Shown here in pieces: positions 3,140 through 64,000 of a stretch of DNA of 64,000 nt. The DNA lies in contig JAQBYC010000001.1 in the NCBI GenBank assembly GCA_027623205.1, positions 121-64,120 on the forward strand. Direction: 5' to 3'. Numbering within the stretch: position 1 is the stretch's first letter; every line of letters begins with the position of its first letter. A program made the translations under genes and the position numbers. The notes under the pieces were generated by a model. The model was not told the origin of the DNA. It saw nothing but the letters and a program-made list of their open reading frames with translations, and searched no databases. The DNA comes from Pseudomonadota bacterium (lineage in GTDB: Bacteria; Pseudomonadota; Alphaproteobacteria; GCA-2731375).

Positions 3140-3236
3140 AGGTCTCTCGTTCCATATAATCTGTTTGACGGGCCAAATTGTCTGCAGTTTACGCCCTTTG
3201 CCATGGCGCGCCCTGGAACCAGCCGCCCGACCCTAT

Positions 3237-3325
3237 TTGCGGGGACACAATACTTATATCAGCGCATTCACGCCGTGAATTTAGAAATAGTAAAGCGGTA
3301 TAAGCATTGTGTCCCCGCAATTTTT
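3237..3325 (+). terminator. Long imperfect inverted repeat (about 26-bp arms) with a nested 7-bp palindrome in the loop and a T5 tract; likely Rho-independent terminator of the OmpA-like gene
   Basis: TTGCGGGGACACAATACTTATATCAGCGC ... GCGGTATAAGCATTGTGTCCCCGCAA followed by TTTTT; inner ATTCACGCCGTGAAT palindrome. Confidence 0.5.
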
Positions 3326-3388
3326 GGCGCCTTCGTGACAGGAAAGCGCCTGCGAATAGGGTCGACAGAATGCGCTGCCCCCGCGACC

Positions 3389-4033
3389 CTAAAAGCAATC
3401 TTCCGCGCTCGCAATTTTGACGGCGTTTGGGGCGCCGCCTTTGACCTCATCCCGCCAGAATCTAAATGCTACCCTTTCCGCAATGCGGGCATTGGAACTC
3501 GATTTCTCGTTGGCCACCAAATTCCTGAAACATGAATGATAGAACTCATGCACCAGCAGCGCCGCATAACAGGCGCGCCTGGTCGCGGAACTTGTGGAAA
3601 AGGTCTTATTGTTGGCCATGCGGTTCAGAAACATTGGGCATAACAATACCGACCCGCTAAGCGATAGGCCGAAACCATTATCGGCGCTATTGCAGATGAC
3701 AGTTTGTGCAGCCCAGTTTGCTTCCATCCCGGGCGCGGGCGTGGACTGGACGCAAATCGCCTCGCCATTGCCACCCTTATCGCCAACGCTGTCCCGCCCC
3801 TGAAAACGGCGGCGCATACAGCCTTTGATATTCTGGTCGAGCCGGTCCTCGAGCGCCTTTTCCAAGGTAGTCCAGCGCGCCTGAATCTGATTCGATACGG
3901 CTTCGATATCTTCGCGTTGCTGGGCATTGCAGGTTATCGCCGTAACCTGGGCGGAAGCCGCGAGCGGCAGCCCAACCAGAAACAGGAAAAAAACAACAAA
4001 TATTGAAAAGGGCCGAATGGACAATGGCTTCAT
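3389..4033 (-). CDS. Secreted cysteine-rich hypothetical protein with HExxH (zincin-like) motif
   Basis: ATG at 4033 (M6 of ORF) with GGAG upstream; signal peptide MKPLSIRPFSIFVVFFLFLVGLPLAASA; 8 Cys residues; LLVHEFYH motif; lies in a low-GC patch 3140-4176. Confidence 0.55.
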   Translation of the reverse strand: MKPLSIRPFSIFVVFFLFLVGLPLAASAQVTAITCNAQQREDIEAVSNQIQARWTTLEKALEDRLDQNIKGCMRRRFQGRDSVGDKGGNGEAICVQSTPAPGMEANWAAQTVICNSADNGFGLSLSGSVLLCPMFLNRMANNKTFSTSSATRRACYAALLVHEFYHSCFRNLVANEKSSSNARIAERVAFRFWRDEVKGGAPNAVKIASAEDCF

Positions 4034-4176
4034 CGGTTCCGACTCCAACGATGTTTATGGGGAGAATTATCATCCAAAAAAGTGCATGCTTCAAGGATTC
4101 CCAAGTATGCGCCATCGGAACCGTTTTCGCATTCCAGGGAGCGACGAGGCATCGGTGAAACGGGAGGACGGCAGTT

Positions 4177-5343
4177 ATGGCGGATATCATCATTATCGGC
4201 GGCAGCATCATGGGGTCGAGCATCGCCTACCATCTGGCGATGACCGCTCGGGCCGGCGACATTTGCGTGGTTGAGCCGGACCCGAGCTACGAGTGGGCGG
4301 CGGCGCCGCGGTCCTCGGGCGGGGTGCGGCTGATGCATGGCCTGCCCGAGAATATCGAAATGTCCCGCTACGGGCGCGAAGTCTACAAGGATTTTGCCCG
4401 TCTGATGGATGTCGACGGCCAGCCGGGCCGTTTTGATTTTCTCGAACAGGGCTATCTTTATTTGGTCGCCGGCGCCGCGGAGGTGGCGATTGCCGAGGAA
4501 AGCTGGCGCATCCAGACCGGCCTGGGCGTGCCCAATGACTTTCTGGACCGGGCCGGGCTCGGCGCGCGCTTCCCCTCGATGAACGTGGCGGATATCGATG
4601 CGGCGATCCACGCGCCCCAGGATGGCTTTATCGATCCCCACGCGGCGGTTCTGGGATTTCGGCGCAAGGCGATCAGCCTGGGGGTCGAATACATTCAGGA
4701 CAAGGTGGTCGATATCACGGTCAGCGGCGGCCTGGCCCGGCAGGTCGTGCTTGCCTCCGGCAAACGGCTGGCGGGCGACATCATCGTCAATGTCGCCGGG
4801 GCCTGGGGGCCGGAAATCTGCGCCATGGTCGGCATGACGGTGCCGGTGGAGCCATTGAGCCGCAATACCTTTTATTTCGAGATTCGCGGCGCCATCGAGA
4901 CCATGCCCCTGACCAAGGATCCCAGCGGCGTCGCTTTCCGCCAGGAAGGCGCCGGCTTCACGGTCGGGCAGACCGACACCGATGCGCCCTTCGGCTTCAA
5001 CTGGGAGGTCCGGCACGATTTGTTCGAGTCGCTGCTCTGGCCCGCCCTGGCGCACCGGGTGCCGGCGTTCGAAGCTTTGCAGGTCAAGCGGGGCTGGGCC
5101 GGGCACTACGCCTACAACCGGATGGACGGCAACACCATTATCGGCAAGTGGCTCGGCGGCCTGGACAATTTCTATGTGGCGACGGGTTTTTCCGGCGCGG
5201 GCCTGCAAAAAGGCCCGGCGATCGGCCGCGCGATGACCGAATTGCTGCTCGACGGCGGTTATCAGACCATCGATCTGTCGCGGATGTCGTATCGGCGGGT
5301 GCTCGACGACGAACCGCTGCTGGAAATCGGCTTCTCGGCCTGA
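4177..5343 (+). CDS. FAD-dependent oxidoreductase (DAO family; glycine/D-amino acid/sarcosine oxidase-like)
   Basis: N-terminal dinucleotide-binding motif IIIIGGSIMGSSIAYHL and a DAO-like fold over 388 aa. Confidence 0.75.
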   Translation: MADIIIIGGSIMGSSIAYHLAMTARAGDICVVEPDPSYEWAAAPRSSGGVRLMHGLPENIEMSRYGREVYKDFARLMDVDGQPGRFDFLEQGYLYLVAGAAEVAIAEESWRIQTGLGVPNDFLDRAGLGARFPSMNVADIDAAIHAPQDGFIDPHAAVLGFRRKAISLGVEYIQDKVVDITVSGGLARQVVLASGKRLAGDIIVNVAGAWGPEICAMVGMTVPVEPLSRNTFYFEIRGAIETMPLTKDPSGVAFRQEGAGFTVGQTDTDAPFGFNWEVRHDLFESLLWPALAHRVPAFEALQVKRGWAGHYAYNRMDGNTIIGKWLGGLDNFYVATGFSGAGLQKGPAIGRAMTELLLDGGYQTIDLSRMSYRRVLDDEPLLEIGFSA

Positions 5344-55478: not shown

Positions 55479-56855
55479 GTGGATGCTATTAATGACTTTG
55501 TCGCTCACGTTACGGGCACTGGTTTCGATGACGTGCCCGCGGCCGCGATGGCGGCGGCGAAGACGTTTATCCTGGATAGCCTGGGCGTTGGCCTGTCGGG
55601 CGGCGCAGGCCCCTGGGTCGATGAGATGATCCAGCTTGCCAGCCAATGGGGGCAGGCTGATGATGCCCGCGTCTGGGGTCACGGGCTGCGCCTGCCGGCG
55701 CCGGCGGCGGCCCTCTGCAATGCCTATCAGATCCACAATGCCGAGTTCGACTGCGTCCATGAAGGCGCCGTGGTGCATTCCATGACCGTGTTATTGGGCG
55801 CGGCGATGGCCGTGGCCGAACGGGATGGCGGGGTCAGCGGCCGGGATTTGATGCTGGCGGCTGTATTGGGGGTCGATGTCGCCTGCCATATTGCCGTCGC
55901 TGTGACCACGGGTCTGAAGTTTTTCCGTCCCGGTACCGCTGGCGCCCTGGCTGCCGTCACGGCCATCGGCAAGTTGCAAGGATTTGATGCCAAGACCTTG
56001 CGAAATGCCTATTCCATTGCCTATGCACAGATGTGCGGCACCATGCAGGCCCACACGGAAGGTTCCATGCTGCTGGGCATGCAGGTCGGCTTTAACGCCC
56101 GCAATGCGGTGGTGGCCTGCGACATGGCGGTGGCTGGCTTGCAAGGCCCGGAAAACATCCTCGAAGGCCCCTTTGGCTTTTTGCGCCTGTTCGAGGACGA
56201 CTATGACCGGGATGTCCTATTGGCTTCCCTGGGCCGGACATGGCGCATCACCGAATTGTCGCACAAGCCCTTCCCCTCGGGTCGGGCCACGCACGGTATT
56301 GTCGATGGTTGTCTGCGGCTGCAACGGGAACATGGCTTCGACGCCGGCGAGATCGAAAGCGTCGTGGCCGCGGTGCCACCCTTGATCCGCCATCTGGTGG
56401 GCCGGCCGATTGAAGCCACCATGACGACCAACTATGCCCGCTTGTGCGCGGTTTATGTGACGGCGCATGCCCTGCGCCACAATGGCATCGGCGCGGATGC
56501 CTATGGCGATGGCGCGCTGACGGACCCGGCCAGCCAGGAACTGGCCCGGCGCATGCAAATCGAGGTGGACGACAACCCCGACCCCAATGCCCTGGTTCCG
56601 GTGACGGTAACCGTGACCCTGAAAAGCGGTGCCGTGCACGGCGTCAGCATATTGGATGTCTATGGCAGCCCGGCCAATCCCATGACCCATGCGGCGCATC
56701 TGGAGAAATTCCGTAGCAATTGCGCCGCGGCGCCGCGGCCGATCGGCGCGGCTGCCGCGCAGACGCTCATTGCGCAAGTGGACGACCTGGAAAACCTGGA
56801 AGATATTAGCCGTCTGGTGGATCTGATGATGCCGGCGCACGAAGAGGGCGCATGA
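55479..56855 (+). CDS. MmgE/PrpD family protein (2-methylcitrate dehydratase superfamily)
   Basis: 458 aa with the PrpD/MmgE all-helical family pattern; translationally coupled to the downstream amidase. Confidence 0.75.
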   Translation: MDAINDFVAHVTGTGFDDVPAAAMAAAKTFILDSLGVGLSGGAGPWVDEMIQLASQWGQADDARVWGHGLRLPAPAAALCNAYQIHNAEFDCVHEGAVVHSMTVLLGAAMAVAERDGGVSGRDLMLAAVLGVDVACHIAVAVTTGLKFFRPGTAGALAAVTAIGKLQGFDAKTLRNAYSIAYAQMCGTMQAHTEGSMLLGMQVGFNARNAVVACDMAVAGLQGPENILEGPFGFLRLFEDDYDRDVLLASLGRTWRITELSHKPFPSGRATHGIVDGCLRLQREHGFDAGEIESVVAAVPPLIRHLVGRPIEATMTTNYARLCAVYVTAHALRHNGIGADAYGDGALTDPASQELARRMQIEVDDNPDPNALVPVTVTVTLKSGAVHGVSILDVYGSPANPMTHAAHLEKFRSNCAAAPRPIGAAAAQTLIAQVDDLENLEDISRLVDLMMPAHEEGA

Positions 56856-58219
56856 TCGATCCGACCGCGCTGGATATCACCGATGCCGCCGCCGCCCTGG
56901 CGGACGGTACTTTTGCCGCCGAGGATCTGATGCGCGCCTATCTCTCCCGGATCGAACAGTATGAACCCGCGCTGAATTGCTTCATCACCCTGTTGCCGGA
57001 TGCGGCGTTGGCGCAAGCCCGCGCCGCCGATGCGCGCCGCGCCAAGGGCGAACGGCTATCGCCCCTGGACGGCATACCTATTGCCCTGAAAGACAATATT
57101 GACTTGGTCGGCGTACCCACCACCAACGGCATGGCGAAATTTCGGACGCCGGCGCGGGACGCTGCCGCGGTGGAGCGTTTACGCCAGGCAGGCGCGGTGA
57201 TTGTCGGCAAGACCAACATGCATGAAGGCGCCCTGGGCGCGACCACCAATAACCATCATCATGGCCCCACTCATAATCCCTGGCGTCATGGTCATACTCC
57301 GGGGGGGTCCAGTGGCGGCTCGGCCGCCGCGGTCGCGGCGCGGCTCTGCGCGGGCGCCCTGGGCACCGATACCATGGGATCGGTGCGCCTGCCGGCGGCT
57401 TACTGCGGTCTGGCCGGACTGAAACCGACCTATGGCCTGATTTCCACCCGTGGCGTCGTCCCATTGAGCTACGGCCTGGATCATGTGGGTCCAATCTGCC
57501 GCTCCGCCCGCGATTTGTCGCTGCTTTTGGCGGTGCTGGCCGGTTATGACCCGGACTGCATGGAGTCCATCCATCCCCACCGTGCCCTGCGTACCGCACA
57601 GGGGGACCTGAAGGGCCTGCGTTTCGCCGTACCCCTGAGCCCCCATGCAGTGCCATGCGAGGCCGGCATATGGGAGGATTTCGAGGGCCATGTGGCCAAT
57701 CTGCGCCGACAGGGCGCGGTCCAGGTCGATCTGCGCCTGACCAACCCGGATCCGACCGGCACCCGGCTGGCCGGTTTATTGATCTCCGAGGCCGACGCCG
57801 GCCATGCCCTGGCGGCGGAATTGCTGTCCCGCCCAGGTGATTTCTCGGATGAATTCCGCATGTTTCTGGAATATGGCCGCGGCGCCGCGGCCCATCGTCT
57901 GGTGGCGGCACAGCGGCGGCTGCAAGCAACGGGGCATGCGGTGCGTAGATTGTTCGATCAGGTCGATCTACTGTTGTTGCCAACGGCGGCGCAGGCAGCT
58001 TTTCCCTTCGCCCAGCCGGCGCCGGCCAGTCAAGCTGATTTTACCCAATGGGCCAATCACGGGGGCTGTCCGGCGTTGAGCTTGCCCTGTGGCCTGTCAT
58101 CCGGGGGCATGCCCCTGGGCTTGCAATTGATCGGCCGGCCTCTGGCTGACGGCCATCTGCTGGCGCTGGCGGAAGCCATCGTACCCTTGCTGCCGCACCT
58201 GCCCGTTCCCGGATGTTAG
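56852..58219 (+). CDS. Amidase (amidase-signature family), second paralog
   Basis: AS signature GGSSGGSAAAVAARLCAGALGTDTMGSVRLPA; 455 aa. Confidence 0.8.
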   Translation: MIDPTALDITDAAAALADGTFAAEDLMRAYLSRIEQYEPALNCFITLLPDAALAQARAADARRAKGERLSPLDGIPIALKDNIDLVGVPTTNGMAKFRTPARDAAAVERLRQAGAVIVGKTNMHEGALGATTNNHHHGPTHNPWRHGHTPGGSSGGSAAAVAARLCAGALGTDTMGSVRLPAAYCGLAGLKPTYGLISTRGVVPLSYGLDHVGPICRSARDLSLLLAVLAGYDPDCMESIHPHRALRTAQGDLKGLRFAVPLSPHAVPCEAGIWEDFEGHVANLRRQGAVQVDLRLTNPDPTGTRLAGLLISEADAGHALAAELLSRPGDFSDEFRMFLEYGRGAAAHRLVAAQRRLQATGHAVRRLFDQVDLLLLPTAAQAAFPFAQPAPASQADFTQWANHGGCPALSLPCGLSSGGMPLGLQLIGRPLADGHLLALAEAIVPLLPHLPVPGC

Positions 58220-58488
58220 GCAAACCTGGCTTTCAAACGACAGGACCAGCGGGCTCACTCGAATTCGCGCATCATTTGGCCAGCCCCGTTTGAATCGACG
58301 AGCAAAACTGTTTTGCGATTTTTGCGCGAACCTGCTTAGCGGTAGACCTTGGGGCGAGATCGGTTTAATGATCCCAAATCAGCCGCTTGCCGGCTTGCCC
58401 AAAGTGGGGACGCAGGCTAGATTGGCCGACTTTTTTCAAGCGCCGCAGCAACATAAATTTGCGGCGGCAAGCTGTGGAGTGTGCCCGC

Positions 58489-59133
58489 GTGGCGGATATT
58501 TTCCAAGAAGTTGATGAAGACATCAGGCGCGACAAAGCCAAGGTGCTTTGGCGCAAGTATGGCAGCTATGCCGCTGTCGCCTGTATCGCCATCGTGGTCG
58601 GCACCGCCGGCCGGGTCGGCTGGCGGGAATATAAGACGGCGCAGCAGGCTGAGGAGTCCGGCCGATATGTGGCGGCCGCCCAGTTGCTGGAAAAGGGTGA
58701 CACCGCCGGCGCCATTACCACCTTTCAATCGTTGGCGGCCGAGGCCAGTACCGGCTATGGCGCGATTGCACGGTTTCAAAGCGCGGCGGCCCGGATCAAG
58801 GCTGGCGATAAAGACGGCGGTCTGGCGGTCTATGATCGGTTTGCGGCCGATGACAGCGTGGATCCCATTTTCCGGGGTTTGGCGCGGCTGCAGGCAGTCA
58901 TGCTACTGATCGATGACGGTGCGTTGGGTGACCTGGACCGGCGCCTGGCGCCGCTGCTTGCTGAGGGCTCCGCATGGCGCCATTCGGCTTTGGAATTGCA
59001 GGCCATTCTCAAACACCGCGAAGGTGATACAGCCGGGGCCCGCGCCGCTTTCAAGGCCTTGTCGGAAGACGCCAGCGCACCGGCTGGCCTGCGCAACCGG
59101 GCGGCACAGATGCTGGCGGCGTTGGGGTCCTGA
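58489..59133 (+). CDS. YfgM-like tetratricopeptide/membrane-anchored protein
   Basis: Probable GTG start at VADIFQEVDEDIRRDKAKVLWRKYG followed by a TM helix and TPR-like repeats; conserved position upstream of bamB. Confidence 0.6.
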   Translation: MADIFQEVDEDIRRDKAKVLWRKYGSYAAVACIAIVVGTAGRVGWREYKTAQQAEESGRYVAAAQLLEKGDTAGAITTFQSLAAEASTGYGAIARFQSAAARIKAGDKDGGLAVYDRFAADDSVDPIFRGLARLQAVMLLIDDGALGDLDRRLAPLLAEGSAWRHSALELQAILKHREGDTAGARAAFKALSEDASAPAGLRNRAAQMLAALGS

Positions 59134-59137
59134 GCGG

Positions 59138-60472
59138 GTGACACGGCACGGCCTGTTCACCGTCCTGTGTTTCGTGGCGGGTGCGATATGGCTTTCGGCC
59201 TGTGAGACGCCGGATTGGCTGGGCGGAAAGCAAAAGCCACCCTTGCCTGGTGAACGGATCTCGATCCTAAGGTTGGACAAGTCGTTGGAGCCGGATGCCT
59301 CGATCGCTGATCTTGAAGTCCGCCTGCCGCGCCCCTGGCGCAATCCAGATTGGCCGCAAGCCGCAGGCTTCGCCAATCATGCCATGCATCATCTGGAAGC
59401 CGGTGAGGTATTGCAGCAGGTATGGAAGATTAGCATCGGCGAAGGTTCGGGCAGCGAAAGAAAATTGCTAAGCCGACCCGTTGTGGCGGCGGATCGCATC
59501 GTCACCATGGATGCCGAGGCCGGTGTGTCCGCGTTCCTGGTCGCGGATGGCCGCCGTGTCTGGCGCCGGGAACTGACCCCGAAGGATGAAGATGAAGGTG
59601 TAATCGGCGGTGGCGTCAGTATTGATAACGGTGTTGTCTATGCCGCCACGGGCTATGGTTTCGTGCATGCCTTATCCCTTGATGACGGCAAGGAGATCTG
59701 GCGCCGGCGCATTGGCACTCCCATTCGCGGCGCGCCAACAGCGATCGGCGGCCGGATATTCGTCATCACCTATGACAATCAGTTGCATGCCCTTTCCAGT
59801 GCCGACGGGTCTACCTTGTGGAACCACAGTGGCATTCCCGAGGATGCCGGTCTGATCGGTGCGCCCAGCGCCGCGGTCGACGGCGGTCTGGTTGTCGTGC
59901 CCTATTCCTCTGGCGAACTATTTGCCTTGCGTTTGGAAAATGGCCGCGTGGTGTGGGGCGATCAACTCATACGGACCCGGCACCTGGCGCCTTTGTCGTC
60001 TTTGAGCGAAATTAGAGGCAGTCCTGTAATCGACCGCGGCATGGTATTTGCGATCAGTTTCTCGGGCCGCATCGCGGCCAATGATCTGCATAGCGGCCAG
60101 CGCCTGTGGGACCGGGATATCACCGGTATGGAGACCCCCTGGGTAGCCGGCGATTTTATCTTTTTGGTCACGGCGCAGGCCGAAGTGGTCTGCCTGTCGC
60201 GCAAGGGCGGCCGCATTCGTTGGGTGGCGCAATTGCACCGCTATGGGGATGAAAAGGAAAAACTGGAGCCGATTCATTGGAGCGGCCCGGTTTTAGCCTC
60301 CGACCGTCTGGTGTTGGTCTCTTCTGATGGCTATGCCGTCGCCATTTCGCCCTATTCCGGGCAAATGTTGGGCCGCATCGAATTGCCCAAGGGCGCCTTG
60401 ATTGCGCCCATCGTTGCCGATGGTTCAATCTATGTCCTGGCAGACAATGGCGATTTGATCGCCCTAAGGTAG
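59138..60472 (+). CDS. bamB: Outer membrane protein assembly factor BamB (PQQ-repeat beta-propeller lipoprotein)
   Basis: Probable GTG start; lipoprotein signal ...AIWLSAC; repeated PQQ-like beta-propeller motifs; synteny with der. Confidence 0.75.
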   Translation: MTRHGLFTVLCFVAGAIWLSACETPDWLGGKQKPPLPGERISILRLDKSLEPDASIADLEVRLPRPWRNPDWPQAAGFANHAMHHLEAGEVLQQVWKISIGEGSGSERKLLSRPVVAADRIVTMDAEAGVSAFLVADGRRVWRRELTPKDEDEGVIGGGVSIDNGVVYAATGYGFVHALSLDDGKEIWRRRIGTPIRGAPTAIGGRIFVITYDNQLHALSSADGSTLWNHSGIPEDAGLIGAPSAAVDGGLVVVPYSSGELFALRLENGRVVWGDQLIRTRHLAPLSSLSEIRGSPVIDRGMVFAISFSGRIAANDLHSGQRLWDRDITGMETPWVAGDFIFLVTAQAEVVCLSRKGGRIRWVAQLHRYGDEKEKLEPIHWSGPVLASDRLVLVSSDGYAVAISPYSGQMLGRIELPKGALIAPIVADGSIYVLADNGDLIALR

Positions 60473-60475
60473 ACC

Positions 60476-61879
60476 ATGAGATTCACGATTGCCATTGTCG
60501 GCCGGCCCAACGTGGGCAAATCGACGCTATTCAACCGTCTGGTAGGCAAGCGTCTGGCTCTGGTTGATGACCAGCCCGGCGTAACCCGCGACCGGCGCGA
60601 AGGCGACGGCCGCATCGCTGCACTGCGCTTTCGGCTGTTCGACACCGCCGGCCTGGAAGACGCCGACGCGGCTAGCATGGAAGGGCGCATGCAGCGCCAG
60701 ACCGAAACCGCCCTGGATGACGCCGATTTGGCCTTGATGTTGATCGACGGCCGGGCCGGGGTCACCCCGTTGGATCGTCATTTCGCCGGTTGGCTGCGGC
60801 GGCGCAACCTGCCCGTGCTGCTGTTAGCCAATAAGTGCGAAGGTGCGGCCGGAGATTTGGGTCTGGCCGAGTCCTGGTCTCTGGGTCTTGGCGAACCCAT
60901 CGCTGTATCCGCCGCCCACGGGGAAGGTCTGGTCCCGCTGCATGACCGAATCCTGGCTGTCATGGAAGATCACGCGGCACGGACCCATCCCGCCGCCGCG
61001 GGCGCCGGAGATGCCGGTTCGGATCTAGACGAAATCGGTGAAACCAATGATGACGACGACGATTTTGATCCCATATTGCAGCTCGCTATTTTGGGGCGGC
61101 CCAATGCCGGCAAATCTACCCTGGTCAACCGCCTGTTGGGCGAAGAGCGGCAGATCACCGGACCGGAACCGGGCCTGACCCGTGATGCCATCGGTATTGC
61201 CTGGCAGTGGCGGGACCAGCCTGTCCGCCTGATCGACACCGCCGGGTTGCGCAAACAGGCAAATGTCAGCGGCAAATTGGAAAAATTGGCGGCCGACGAC
61301 GCGATCCGGGCCATGGAATATGCGCAGGTCGTGGTTTTATTGCTGGATGCCCGCGCCCCACTGGAACGCCAGGATTTGACCATCGCCCGGCGCACCTTGG
61401 AGGAAGGCCGGGCCTTGATCGTCGCGGCCAACAAATGGGATCTGATCACCGACCGCCGTGCCGCAATGGGTCAGCTGCGCGACCGCCTGGATACTTCGTT
61501 AACCCAGGCCCGGGGCGTGCCTGTTGTGACCCTTTCGGCCTTGACCGGCCAGGGGGTGGAGAAATTGATGCCGGCGGTGACGAAAATCTATCGGCACTGG
61601 CAACACCGCATTTCCACGGCAGCCCTGAACCGCTGGCTGAAAGATATGACGGAAAGCCATCCCCCGCCATTGGGGCAACATGGCCGGCGTATTCGCCTGC
61701 GTTATATGACCCAGGCTAAAACCCGGCCACCAACCTTTGTCATTTTTTCCAACCTGCCTGACCTGCCGGATGCCTATACGCGTTACCTGCAAAACGGACT
61801 GCGGGAAAAATTTGACCTGCCGGGCGTACCCCTGCGCATCTTTCTGCGCCAATCGGACAACCCCTACGCCAAGGATTAG
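60476..61879 (+). CDS. der: Ribosome biogenesis GTPase Der (EngA)
   Basis: Two tandem GTPase domains (GRPNVGKST and GRPNAGKST) plus a KH-like C-terminus. Confidence 0.9.
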   Translation: MRFTIAIVGRPNVGKSTLFNRLVGKRLALVDDQPGVTRDRREGDGRIAALRFRLFDTAGLEDADAASMEGRMQRQTETALDDADLALMLIDGRAGVTPLDRHFAGWLRRRNLPVLLLANKCEGAAGDLGLAESWSLGLGEPIAVSAAHGEGLVPLHDRILAVMEDHAARTHPAAAGAGDAGSDLDEIGETNDDDDDFDPILQLAILGRPNAGKSTLVNRLLGEERQITGPEPGLTRDAIGIAWQWRDQPVRLIDTAGLRKQANVSGKLEKLAADDAIRAMEYAQVVVLLLDARAPLERQDLTIARRTLEEGRALIVAANKWDLITDRRAAMGQLRDRLDTSLTQARGVPVVTLSALTGQGVEKLMPAVTKIYRHWQHRISTAALNRWLKDMTESHPPPLGQHGRRIRLRYMTQAKTRPPTFVIFSNLPDLPDAYTRYLQNGLREKFDLPGVPLRIFLRQSDNPYAKD

Positions 61880-61914: not shown

Positions 61915-63549
61915 CTATTTGGCCGGCCGGTTCCGCCCCGGAATGATGACCGGCCACGGATCGGGCGTTTTGGGAAAGGGCACTTCAATCACGGTAGGAA
62001 CCGTCTGTCTGAAGGCGTTGGGCAATATCCTGGCCAGCGCTTCGGGGGTTTCCGCACGGTAGGCGGCGCAGCCAAAGCTTTCGGCCATGGCGACAAAATC
62101 CGGATTGGTCAAATCGGAGGCGATGGTGCGGCCATCATAGAGGTTTTCCTGCATGCGGCGGACGTTACCGTAAGCGCCGTCGGCGAAGACGACGGCGACA
62201 ACGGCTACGTTGTATTTCACCGCCGTCGCCAACTCCTGTACATTGTACATGAAGCCCCCATCGCCGTTGATGGACAAGACCTGACGATCCGGGTTGGCGA
62301 TCTTGGCGCCGATGGCAGTGGCCAGGCCGCAGCCCAGAGTGCCCTGGTAGGCCGAGGTTAGAAAGCTACGCGGCCGATAAACAGGCATCGCGACGCGGGA
62401 AACATAGCCAACCTGGGTCAGTTCGTCGACGAAGATGCCATCGTCGTCCAGTGCGTCACGCAGCACCTTGATCCAGGCCATTTGCGGGCCCAGGCGATCC
62501 AGCAACATGGCCTGCACCTCACCCTGCAAGGCGACCAGTTCATCCTCGCGCGAGGCGCGGCTGGGGGCCTGCTTCCCCACCGCATCCACCAACGCCGGCA
62601 TAATATCCCGGGCATCGCCAACCATGGCAACGTCCGGCGTGGCGATACGCTTGATCTCTACGGGGTCAATGTCCACATGAATGATCTTCAGGTTTTCATC
62701 GGTGCCCCAGTTCATGCGTGGCGGTTGTAGCCGGGTGCCCACCGCCAGCACCACATCCGCCGAGGCCCAGAGGCGATGGCCGGCTAATTGGGTCATGGAC
62801 AGATAGTGGCGGTCGGAAAGGATACCGCGGCCGGTTCGATTGGCGATCACCGGGGCCTGCAACATTTCCGCCAAAGCCTGCACCGCCTCTCCACTCGCCA
62901 CGGCGCCGCCGCCCACGAAGATCATCGGCGCCTTCGCATCCGCCAACAAGGCGGCCGCCTTGGCCAGGGCATCTTCATCCACGGGTGGACGGGCATAATC
63001 GGTAACGGCCGGCAACAGATCGACGTTGGCGGGCTGGGCCAGTTGATCCAGAGGCATTTCGATCGCCACAGGTTGGGGCCGGCCCGTCCGCAATTGTCGA
63101 AAGGCCTCTGCGACCTTGCCCGGCGCATCGGTGGGATGATGGATCCGCGCCGCCCATTTGGTCAGGCCGCCCAGGATCGAAAGTTGGTCCGGAAGTTCGT
63201 GCAACATGCCATGACCCCGGCCAATATAGGCGGACGGGATCTGCCCCGTAACGCACAGCACCGGCACGTTGGCGGCCCATGACGTACTCAAGGCCGCCGT
63301 GGTGTTCAAAACCCCCGGCCCCGGCACCACTGCGAAAGCGCCGACTTTGCCCGTCGACTGCGCGTAGCCATGGGCCATATAGGCGACGCCCTGTTCGTGG
63401 CGGCTGTTTATCACCCTGATATTATTGCCCTCGTCGTGCAGCGCGTTGAAAAACCAGTCCAGTTGCACCCCGGGCAGGCCGAAAATGGTGTCGACGCCAT
63501 GGGCGATAATGGATTTCACCAGGGCTTGGCCGCCAGTCATACGGGTCAT
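61915..63549 (-). CDS. Thiamine-pyrophosphate-dependent enzyme (acetolactate synthase large subunit-like)
   Basis: 544 aa with N-terminal TPP-Pyr, central and C-terminal TPP-PP domains; GDGGF..N TPP-binding motif (INGDGGFMYN). Confidence 0.75.
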   Translation of the reverse strand: MTRMTGGQALVKSIIAHGVDTIFGLPGVQLDWFFNALHDEGNNIRVINSRHEQGVAYMAHGYAQSTGKVGAFAVVPGPGVLNTTAALSTSWAANVPVLCVTGQIPSAYIGRGHGMLHELPDQLSILGGLTKWAARIHHPTDAPGKVAEAFRQLRTGRPQPVAIEMPLDQLAQPANVDLLPAVTDYARPPVDEDALAKAAALLADAKAPMIFVGGGAVASGEAVQALAEMLQAPVIANRTGRGILSDRHYLSMTQLAGHRLWASADVVLAVGTRLQPPRMNWGTDENLKIIHVDIDPVEIKRIATPDVAMVGDARDIMPALVDAVGKQAPSRASREDELVALQGEVQAMLLDRLGPQMAWIKVLRDALDDDGIFVDELTQVGYVSRVAMPVYRPRSFLTSAYQGTLGCGLATAIGAKIANPDRQVLSINGDGGFMYNVQELATAVKYNVAVVAVVFADGAYGNVRRMQENLYDGRTIASDLTNPDFVAMAESFGCAAYRAETPEALARILPNAFRQTVPTVIEVPFPKTPDPWPVIIPGRNRPAK

Positions 63550-63606
63550 GGGTAACTCCAGTATTGCCTAATCTATTGGGTAAGCCTAGCACGGCTTGGG
63601 CCGGTC

Positions 63607-63876
63607 TCAATCACAGACTTCAAGCAATTCACCATGCAATAAGGTGGCCAGGGCGCCGGCTAGATCCCGTCCAATGGTATCGGCGGGGGTCTCGGGAAAA
63701 GCCTCGGCAAATAGTAGCAGCAATTCCGCTTCACTGGCCGGTTCCTCCAGGGCGCGCCAGATCGACATGGCCAGCCGGTCCAGATGAAACATGTCGCCGC
63801 TGTCGCCGGCGATCAGGAACAGTTCGTCCTCGACCGGGGTTTCGTTGATCCCGGGGCGCCGGCGGTATCGGCTCAT
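63607..63876 (-). CDS. PqqD family protein (RiPP recognition element / peptide chaperone-like)
   Basis: 89 aa; NETPVEDELFLIAGD...SIWRALEE...FAEAFPETPADTIGRDLAGALATLLHGELLEV parallels the PqqD pattern ...LNETAAAILELVDG...FPEAGGVDDDVVEFLQ; ATGA overlap with an upstream minus-strand gene. Confidence 0.7.
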   Translation of the reverse strand: MSRYRRRPGINETPVEDELFLIAGDSGDMFHLDRLAMSIWRALEEPASEAELLLLFAEAFPETPADTIGRDLAGALATLLHGELLEVCD

Positions 63877-64000
63877 GGGCTTTCCCGACCGTCGAATTGG
63901 CTAATAACCGTATCGGCGGCCTCGAACGCAGAGGCATAGCGCAGTTGCCAGATGCCGACGGCTTGGGCCAAACGAACACAGGCGGACAGTTCCCCCTGTT
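63877..64000 (-). CDS. 3'-terminal fragment of an unidentified gene translationally coupled to the PqqD-family gene (truncated by window edge)
   Basis: Open frame to the window edge encoding ...QGELSACVRLAQAVGIWQLRYASAFEAADTVISQFDGRESP-stop, with TGA overlapping the PqqD ATG. Confidence 0.4.

Follow-up and report, generated by a model that had tools for sequence, protein, structure and literature searches.

Near one end of a 64,000-nucleotide stretch of an alphaproteobacterial genome (assembly GCA_027623205.1, contig JAQBYC010000001.1, positions 121 to 64,120; hereafter the window), a small gene encodes an 89-residue protein of the PqqD family. This is the type of domain called a recognition element (RRE) for peptides synthesized on ribosomes and modified after translation (RiPPs), and the question that the locus raises is which enzyme the protein serves and which peptide it binds. 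The gene is preceded by one that runs off the window at position 64000 and is followed, on the same strand, by a gene encoding an enzyme dependent on thiamine pyrophosphate (TPP). A preliminary description took the locus for a non-canonical cluster, related to those for pyrroloquinoline quinone (PQQ) or lasso peptides, and drew attention to the pairing of PqqD with the TPP enzyme. Here, we show that the conserved partner of the PqqD protein is an HPr-kinase-like enzyme encoded by the truncated upstream gene. We also present evidence that the two proteins may constitute an RRE-guided peptide kinase acting on a small peptide encoded next to them, with the TPP enzyme lying outside the module; judging from sequence comparisons, we put the probability of this reading at about 0.55.

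The kinase partner of the PqqD-family protein

A look-up of the exact PqqD protein returned two contigs that extend past the window edge, L001 (Logan, 13.8 kb) and L002 (ENA scaffold, 73 kb), which match the window with 100% identity across 5.5 kb (L001) and 2.0 kb (L002); position 9877 of L002 corresponds to window position 64000. The coupling previously described between the pqqD-like gene and an upstream gene ending in ...VISQFDGRESP is confirmed on the minus strand, where the TGA of the upstream gene is overlapped by the ATG of the PqqD gene (...CAA TTC GAC GGT CGG GAA AGC CC[ATGA]GC). The extension supplies the remainder of the upstream gene (Table 1).

The product of this gene is an HprK-like P-loop kinase with the fold of HPr kinase and phosphoenolpyruvate carboxykinase (PEPCK). 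It falls below the threshold of the available family models, with 35.8 bits for TIGR04352, HprK-related kinase A (E 4e-9, cutoff 200), and 23.9 bits for Pfam Hpr_kinase_C (cutoff 33.3). The top PDB sequences found with a profile of 18 homologs are HPr kinase/phosphorylases (1jb1, E 1e-5; 2qmh, 3tqf and 1ko7; E 1e-5 to 1e-4). An AlphaFold2 (AF2) model of high confidence (predicted local distance difference test score (pLDDT) 88.5, predicted template-modelling score 0.87) was matched by Foldseek, with a probability of 1.00 in each case, to ATP-dependent PEPCK (E 8e-8, TM-score normalized to the query 0.57-0.60) and to the HPr kinase/phosphorylase structures 1kkl, 2qmh and 3tqf (E 4e-6 to 1e-5). 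Residues H112, G132-K133-S134 and D150-D151 are invariant in the kinase alignment (A1) and recur in 145-149 of the 149 family representatives. Their spacing, 21 residues from H to K and 17 from K to D, is identical to that of H148, K169 and D186-D187 in BsfK, a kinase of lasso-peptide precursors in which the importance of these residues has been verified by mutagenesis (PMC10368454). Some relatives of the kinase (P0009, P0036-P0046) bear the label of Pfam family PF27840 in precomputed annotations. A role in anti-phage defence was considered and set aside, a PADLOC check having yielded only P-loop noise.

The 89-residue protein is a genuine PF05402 member, as its sequence pattern had indicated: its score of 35.1 bits exceeds the gathering cutoff of 23.4 (E 1.7e-8), and the match covers profile positions 1-64 of 67. 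With a profile of its homologs, the sole meaningful relatives of known structure are the lasso-peptide RREs TbiB1 (5v1u, E 4e-5), 9x90_B and TfuB1, and PqqD structures of the PQQ pathway are not among the PDB sequence matches. Its best NCBIfam model is TIGR04353 (16.1 bits, cutoff 35); the lasso PqqD models reach 13.5 bits (cutoff 70). In an AF2 model built from a shallow alignment of close homologs (pLDDT 75.6), the helical half of the protein superimposes on TbiB1 (5v1v/5v1u) with a root-mean-square deviation of 1.1-1.9 Å over 48-56 columns and a probability of 0.75-0.90, at weak Foldseek E-values of 0.65-1.5.

Genomes were scanned for relatives of the kinase with a closer alignment (A2). 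The loci compared comprise a clade of marine Rhodospirillaceae/Alphaproteobacteria metagenome-assembled genomes (L003, L009-L020), within which the kinases are 54-81% and the PqqD proteins 59-86% identical, and a number of distant loci (L005, L007, L026, L028, L029, L030, L086). The two genes overlap or adjoin in every lineage sampled (L003, L005, L007, L009-L020, L026, L028-L030, L086), and in L008 they are naturally fused into one protein (P0033). An exhaustive profile search of 1.84 billion representatives returned 501 relatives of the kinase (50% identity clusters) at E <= 1e-30. Among the best 149 of these, 47 are at least 370 residues long and 46 of the 47 carry a C-terminal PqqD domain, so that about a third of these representatives (46/149) are kinase-PqqD fusions. 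The kinase and PqqD are a conserved, often fused pair and form a two-gene unit.

A PF05402 protein whose nearest solved relatives are lasso B1 proteins might belong to a non-canonical PQQ-like or lasso-type cluster, with genes for radical S-adenosylmethionine (SAM) enzymes, PqqB/PqqC or lasso B2/C proteins past the window edge, as had been proposed. Past position 64000 there are indeed genes for a partner enzyme and a candidate precursor, but none for a radical-SAM enzyme, PqqB, PqqC or a lasso cyclase: the extension holds the HprK-like kinase, a small open reading frame (ORF), a CMP-sugar-synthetase-like gene and an amidase gene, and no standard pqqABC stands immediately upstream. Among the Pfam-labelled genes 10 kb upstream (L002) and 5 kb downstream (L001) there are no PqqA/B/C/E or radical-SAM genes, the whole window not having been scanned for pqq genes. 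The lasso B2 transglutaminase-like peptidase and the C asparagine-synthetase-like cyclase are missing from the gene tables of L001-L030, and PQQ, radical-SAM or lasso B2/C genes are found in none of about 20 related contexts. The NCBIfam lasso and PQQ models for PqqD are not reached either, and we regard a cluster of this kind as very improbable. Neither a split or non-canonical pqq operon nor a lasso cluster was retained as an explanation, since the genes required are absent from the 10 kb past the edge and from the related loci.

A family of small open reading frames upstream of the kinase gene

A candidate for the peptide bound by the PqqD protein is encoded directly upstream of the kinase and on the same strand, where the 12 clade genomes that cover the region all carry one to three tandem copies of an ORF of 65-105 codons. 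A typical clade copy has the form M..(4-20 aa)..LSRRKALARLGLAAAVVYAAPTITHIDGEALA-KKKARPSVICPGGSC-(SK/SR/GK repeats). ORFs with the same leader lie directly upstream of kinases that are 41% (L026), 36% (L086), 32% (L029 and the fusion in L008) and 28% (L089) identical to the window kinase, so that the small ORF adjoins the kinase in six divergent lineages; in L029 the tail consists of TK/TR repeats, with Thr in the place of Ser. Over 15 copies the leader-coding region has a mean pN of 0.095 and a pS of 0.64, a ratio of 0.15, and is under purifying selection.

A profile search extended this unannotated alphaproteobacterial family to at least 572 clusters (90% identity) of 55-116 residues among 8000 scored candidates, none of the clusters found having a Pfam domain. 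The 120 members listed all contain an RR pair; 119 have the motif Y-x-x-P-x-[LIVM], and in 118 an AxA ends 13-15 residues past the conserved Tyr. Residues G, R, S, K and P abound in the rest of the sequence, and the tail is hypervariable. By inspection, with its RR pair and AxA, the N-terminus resembles a twin-arginine translocation (Tat) signal peptide, for which an S-R-R-x-x-L motif and an h-region would also be expected, although the Tat-signal model TIGR01409 is not significant, scoring 14.5 against 16.7 bits on the copy of this genome and failing to match two other copies. In lasso precursors that use discrete B1 RREs, the leader motif that is conserved is YxxPxL, at positions -17 to -12 (PMC10368454, PMC6784204).

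Short DNA repeats encode the basic tails, whose length and composition (GK, SK, SR) vary even between adjacent copies. Two or three tandem peptide genes are present at L003 6577-7984, L015 7040-7927 and L024 5544-6213. A longer subtype of 100-112 residues (L022, L023, L094; P0107, P0117, P0123, P0134, P0136) contains SRPS(Y/F) repeats and a conserved C-terminal LTREERAxxYLLxTLTxR; its locus lies between a VWA/DUF2927/AAA set and genes for a p450 and an M48 peptidase.

We propose that the PqqD protein is the peptide-binding subunit of a two-protein peptide kinase whose catalytic partner would be the HPr-kinase-like protein, acting on Ser/Thr. The RRE would bind the conserved N-terminal leader of the precursor, with its Tat-signal-like character and invariant Y-x-x-P-x-(I/V/L), and would bring the C-terminal part, highly basic and rich in Ser/Thr, to the kinase, which would phosphorylate it in the cytoplasm. 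Export might follow, the leader being removed at the conserved AxA site. The domain identities, the coupling and fusion of the genes, the conserved catalytic residues and the position of the small ORF beside the kinase are direct observations, and it is from these that we infer leader binding, phosphorylation, acceptor residues and export. That the small ORF encodes the substrate of the pair, its family being served by alternative modifying systems that each bring a peptide-binding module of their own (RRE or TPR, a tetratricopeptide repeat), seems to us somewhat likelier than that the two are neighbours by coincidence.

Several observations weigh against this proposal. In the winged-helix-like fold expected of an RRE, a three-stranded N-terminal sheet precedes three helices; in the PqqD protein this part is poorly modelled (pLDDT 52-60) and is not formed as a sheet, so that the model is too weak in its N-terminal third to establish the fold, and the Foldseek match is weak (E 0.65). 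In the lasso system, the precursor BsfA is still phosphorylated when its YxxPxL is replaced by alanine. The tails of some candidate precursors (L003, L026, L089) contain few Ser or Thr residues, and no leader-family ORF lies within 6-8 kb of four kinase-PqqD pairs (L005, L007, L028, L030). The small-ORF family, moreover, mostly occurs without such a pair beside it. The leader profile retrieved 64 metagenomic loci: the kinase lies directly downstream of the leader ORF in 9 of them, and about 40 have the order hldE - mmcB-like (opposite strand) - peptide - TPR/SAM-methyltransferase; p450 and M48 peptidase genes are the neighbours in 1, and about 14 are too short or have no recognised neighbour. 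In L008, a subtilisin-like S8 peptidase has the same N-terminus as the small-ORF family. Because most members occur away from the pair and this peptidase shares their N-terminus, the N-terminus may be mainly an export signal. At that locus the S8 peptidase gene (3206-4495) and the gene for a 110-residue peptide (4581-4913) both lie directly upstream of the kinase-PqqD fusion, and the two products have in common an N-terminal RR...LGL...AYVAP(A/T)L...ARA.

The precursor ORF of the present genome (L001/L002) is, in addition, frameshifted. Its zero frame leaves the family consensus after ...ALAKK and continues as NPNPDPNP through a hexanucleotide repeat, while the -1 frame reads KKKARPSRVCPGGSCDDNSKSKSKSRSKSKSRSKSKEKSK up to a stop codon, agrees with the orthologs and restores the conserved KKKARPS..CPGGSC..SKSKSR tail. 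In the DNA alignment, CTGGC-AAAAAAAAGG here stands against CTGGCCAAAAAAAAGG in L010 and L011, a one-base deletion (CC to C) at the edge of a run of eight A (L002 8929-8936). A -1 slip on A_AAA_AAA would give back the conserved protein exactly. With a deletion of one nucleotide beside this run, the ORF is either inactivated or dependent on a -1 slip, and this copy may be a pseudogene, depend on slippage for its expression or reflect an error of assembly. One clade genome (L011 7923-8858) has the kinase split into two ORFs and an aberrant peptide C-terminus, a sign either of module decay or of faulty assembly; given the split kinase, the module may decay to some extent within the clade.

In an alternative reading, the kinase-PqqD pair is a real unit with another substrate, for instance in control of the envelope or of extracellular polysaccharide (EPS), or in signalling linked to RegB/RegA or the phosphotransferase system, and the small ORF encodes an unrelated, syntenic, exported cationic peptide. 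The four pairs that lack a leader-family ORF directly follow genes for a RegB/RegA-like sensor kinase and response regulator; downstream of the pair are a conserved protein of about 180 residues (L007, L028), type I secretion ABC/HlyD genes (L007, L028, L030) or BBP2_2/Wza/Wzz EPS genes (L005). In the clade, too, a RegB/RegA-like system is present, and like the hprK-rapZ-EIIA-HPr genes it is no more than about 5 kb away, and the occurrence of most leader-family ORFs apart from the pair, like the S8 peptidase, fits this alternative as well. Against it, six lineages with different flanks, their kinases sharing just 28-41% identity, have the small ORF on the same strand as the kinase and immediately upstream of it, PqqD domains are known as peptide binders only, and the leader has a motif of the YxxPxL type used by the closest solved RREs. 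We consider another substrate an unlikely but serious alternative, and the RRE-guided peptide kinase acting on the small ORF product the likelier account.

The abundance of the other gene order suggests that a second, methyltransferase-based system operates on the same leader family. The hldE - mmcB-like - peptide - TPR + SAM-methyltransferase row, with one and sometimes two peptide copies, occurs in L021, L024, L025 and about 40 of L037-L092, and HldE identities across these loci are 53-93%. It is tempting, though rather doubtful, to generalize: in tiny cationic exported peptides of Alphaproteobacteria (at least 572 clusters), the Tat-type signal could double as a RiPP-style leader with YxxPx(L/I/V), read before export by either the RRE-HprK-like kinase, as here, or, in most other genomes, the TPR-SAM-methyltransferase.

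The TPP enzyme and the surrounding genes

The enzyme encoded 57 bp downstream of PqqD on the same strand is acetolactate-synthase-like, as first described. It contains three TPP-enzyme domains and exceeds the cutoff of NCBIfam PRK08266 (764.9 against 571 bits); it does not reach the NCBIfam equivalog models for biosynthetic acetolactate synthase, and its best relatives of known structure are acetolactate synthase and glyoxylate carboligase.

A pairing of PqqD with this enzyme had been thought noteworthy. Every clade locus that extends far enough, 13 in all, has the TPP gene after PqqD and on its strand (82-94% identity), and the gene is absent from all nine other kinase-PqqD lineages (L005, L007, L008, L026, L028, L029, L030, L086, L089). 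Because it is found after PqqD only in this clade, it is probably a lineage-specific syntenic neighbour rather than a core component, and the partner conserved throughout is the kinase. A genuine, co-transcribed role in the clade, in which the enzyme might produce or change a group on the peptide that derives from a keto acid or a sugar, is nevertheless conceivable. The enzyme stays after PqqD in 13/13 clade loci although the genes beyond it differ (Der/BamB or abhydrolase/GCS2), and the 57-bp spacer of the window holds no promoter- or terminator-like site, so that co-transcription of PqqD and the TPP gene is possible, a further point against placing the enzyme outside the module. On the other hand, L026 keeps the whole neuB-neuC-dehydrogenase-neuA-peptide-kinase-PqqD row without a TPP gene, the spacer reaches about 990 bp in L019 (range in the clade from about 57 bp), the TPP enzyme is far more conserved than the kinase or PqqD, and PRK08266 is a subfamily modelled by NCBIfam separately from the kinase and PqqD families. 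We regard a role in the module as quite unlikely; the TPP enzyme is probably a bystander. Scans for promoters and terminators in the PqqD-TPP spacer and the peptide-kinase region gave counts on a par with those in shuffled sequence and are for that reason uninformative, and no Rfam match to a regulatory RNA was found in L002 7400-10400.

Table 1. Features of the locus. Positions above 64000 belong to the extended window; L002 positions are given where available.
Feature	Position	Strand	Remarks
HPr-kinase/PEPCK-fold P-loop kinase, part in window	63873..64000	-	C-terminal 41 codons and stop; runs off the edge at 64000
Kinase, full gene, 304 aa	64787-63873 (L002 9090-10004)	-	
PqqD-family RRE protein, 89 aa	63607..63876	-	PF05402 match
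Small precursor-like ORF	65090-64815 (L002 8787-9062)	-	In the 560-bp gap upstream of the kinase
Spacer, PqqD stop to TPP start, 57 bp	63550..63606	-	
Acetolactate-synthase-like TPP enzyme, 544 aa	61915..63549	-	PF02776, PF00205, PF02775; NCBIfam PRK08266
GTPase Der	60476-61879		Downstream of TPP gene
BamB-like PQQ_2 beta-propeller	59285-60472		Downstream of TPP gene
YfgM-like TPR protein	within 56852-61879		Downstream of TPP gene
Amidase	56852-58219		In housekeeping stretch downstream of TPP gene
Cytidylyltransferase, PF02348, PseF/NeuA-like (CMP-sugar-synthetase-like)	beyond the small-ORF gap		Below cutoff
Divergent amidase	beyond the cytidylyltransferase (L002 extension)		
RegB/RegA-like two-component system	past the divergent amidase (L002 extension)		
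Alphaproteobacterial hprK-rapZ-EIIA(Man)-HPr genes	past the RegB/RegA-like pair (L002 extension)		

Beyond the TPP gene the window (56852-61879) is an ordinary housekeeping context; the 'PQQ' in the repeat name of the BamB-like protein is unrelated to PQQ synthesis. On the other side, the peptide gene has the cytidylyltransferase gene as its immediate upstream neighbour throughout the clade loci and in L026; neuB, neuC and a 2-hydroxyacid dehydrogenase gene precede the cytidylyltransferase gene in L026 and in roughly half of the clade loci. A search of the rest of the window found neither neuB nor neuC nor additional leader-family ORFs, and the NeuA-like gene is missing from the four other peptide-kinase lineages. 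The most divergent peptide-kinase-PqqD locus (L029 5632-9323) is followed by genes for a BBP2_2 porin and two TatA/B/E-family proteins and has methylamine dehydrogenase genes upstream. The flanks of L086 and L089, which are of high GC content, contain too many spurious ORFs to be annotated by eye.

Relation to known systems and significance

The closest parallel is provided by the kinases of lasso precursors that act with a B1 RRE (BsfK/BsfB1, PadeK, ThcoK, PsmK). BsfK phosphorylates its leader-bearing precursor much faster in the presence of the RRE BsfB1 and does not act on the core peptide alone (PMC10368454); the nucleotidyltransferase PsmN of kinase-bearing lasso clusters adds a hexose to the phosphate (PMC6993621, PMC8498205). 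The module described here resembles these systems in its HPr-kinase-like enzyme with an equally spaced H...GxGKS...DD, in a discrete PqqD-type RRE encoded beside the kinase with lasso B1 proteins as its closest solved homologs, and in a YxxPx(L/I/V) about 15 residues before the leader end of the candidate precursor. A nucleotidyltransferase-type gene beside the module in two lineages is a looser likeness to PsmN and BsfN, and we speculate that the NeuA-like enzyme may play a role analogous to that of PsmN, although it is of the CMP-nonulosonate-synthetase type (PF02348) and not of the PsmN family. The differences are considerable: no locus here encodes a cyclase (C), a B2 peptidase or an ABC exporter, the kinase and RRE are often fused, and the precursor has 65-110 residues with a Tat-signal-like N-terminus and a polybasic repeat tail, as against a lasso core of 15-25 residues.

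The best-scoring models for the two proteins belong to the 'HPr-rel-A system' of NCBIfam (TIGR04352 kinase and TIGR04353 PqqD family peptide chaperone), in which the genes have the same order, kinase then PqqD. Both proteins are far below the cutoffs (35.8 against 200 and 16.1 against 35 bits), as are relatives from L005, L007, L008 and L026, and membership in TIGR04352 or TIGR04353 was ruled out on score. Since the window proteins and all alphaproteobacterial relatives tested fall short, the module is a separate, distant branch. The NCBIfam descriptions returned name no substrate for the HPr-rel-A system, and the literature searched makes no mention of it or of HprK-related kinase A. With the PqqD of pqqABCDE the window protein shares the PF05402 domain and an expected peptide-chaperone role; it differs in having a kinase as its partner, with no PqqA, PqqB, PqqC or radical-SAM PqqE nearby.

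Tat signal-peptide chaperones of the TorD/DmsD type, the redox enzyme maturation proteins (REMPs), are cytoplasmic proteins that bind an RR-type signal before export, and in the shared-leader precursor families, nitrile hydratase leader peptides (NHLP) and Nif11, one conserved leader family is combined with various modifying enzymes. A kinase-RRE pair in some loci and a TPR-methyltransferase in others, on one leader family, would resemble these in concept. This is an analogy: the folds of PqqD and the REMPs are unrelated, and binding of a signal peptide by PqqD is here a supposition. The literature searched contained nothing relevant on Tat-type RiPP leaders. Should the leader indeed play both parts, ribosomal peptides would have a new class of modification, yielding polybasic peptides that are (poly)phosphorylated or methylated, with a possible link to cell-surface sugar pathways through the neuA/neuB/neuC or hldE neighbours.

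To our knowledge, the RRE-dependent HprK-like kinases characterised so far are all tailoring enzymes of lasso-peptide clusters. The module described here is an uncharacterised, lasso-independent combination of a stand-alone RRE and a kinase, often fused, with a previously undescribed family of candidate precursors. The pair stands alone, forms a family of at least 501 clusters and has a plausible substrate family in six lineages; it is the kinase-RRE-peptide module, and probably not the pairing of PqqD with a TPP enzyme, that makes the locus of interest. If confirmed, the proposal would give a function and a substrate to genes now annotated as 'hypothetical' or 'PqqD family' and related to the uncharacterised HPr-rel-A system, would indicate that RREs are able to recruit enzymes to signal-peptide-like leaders, and would bring to light, in marine Alphaproteobacteria, a class of small exported peptides that are polybasic and phosphorylated.

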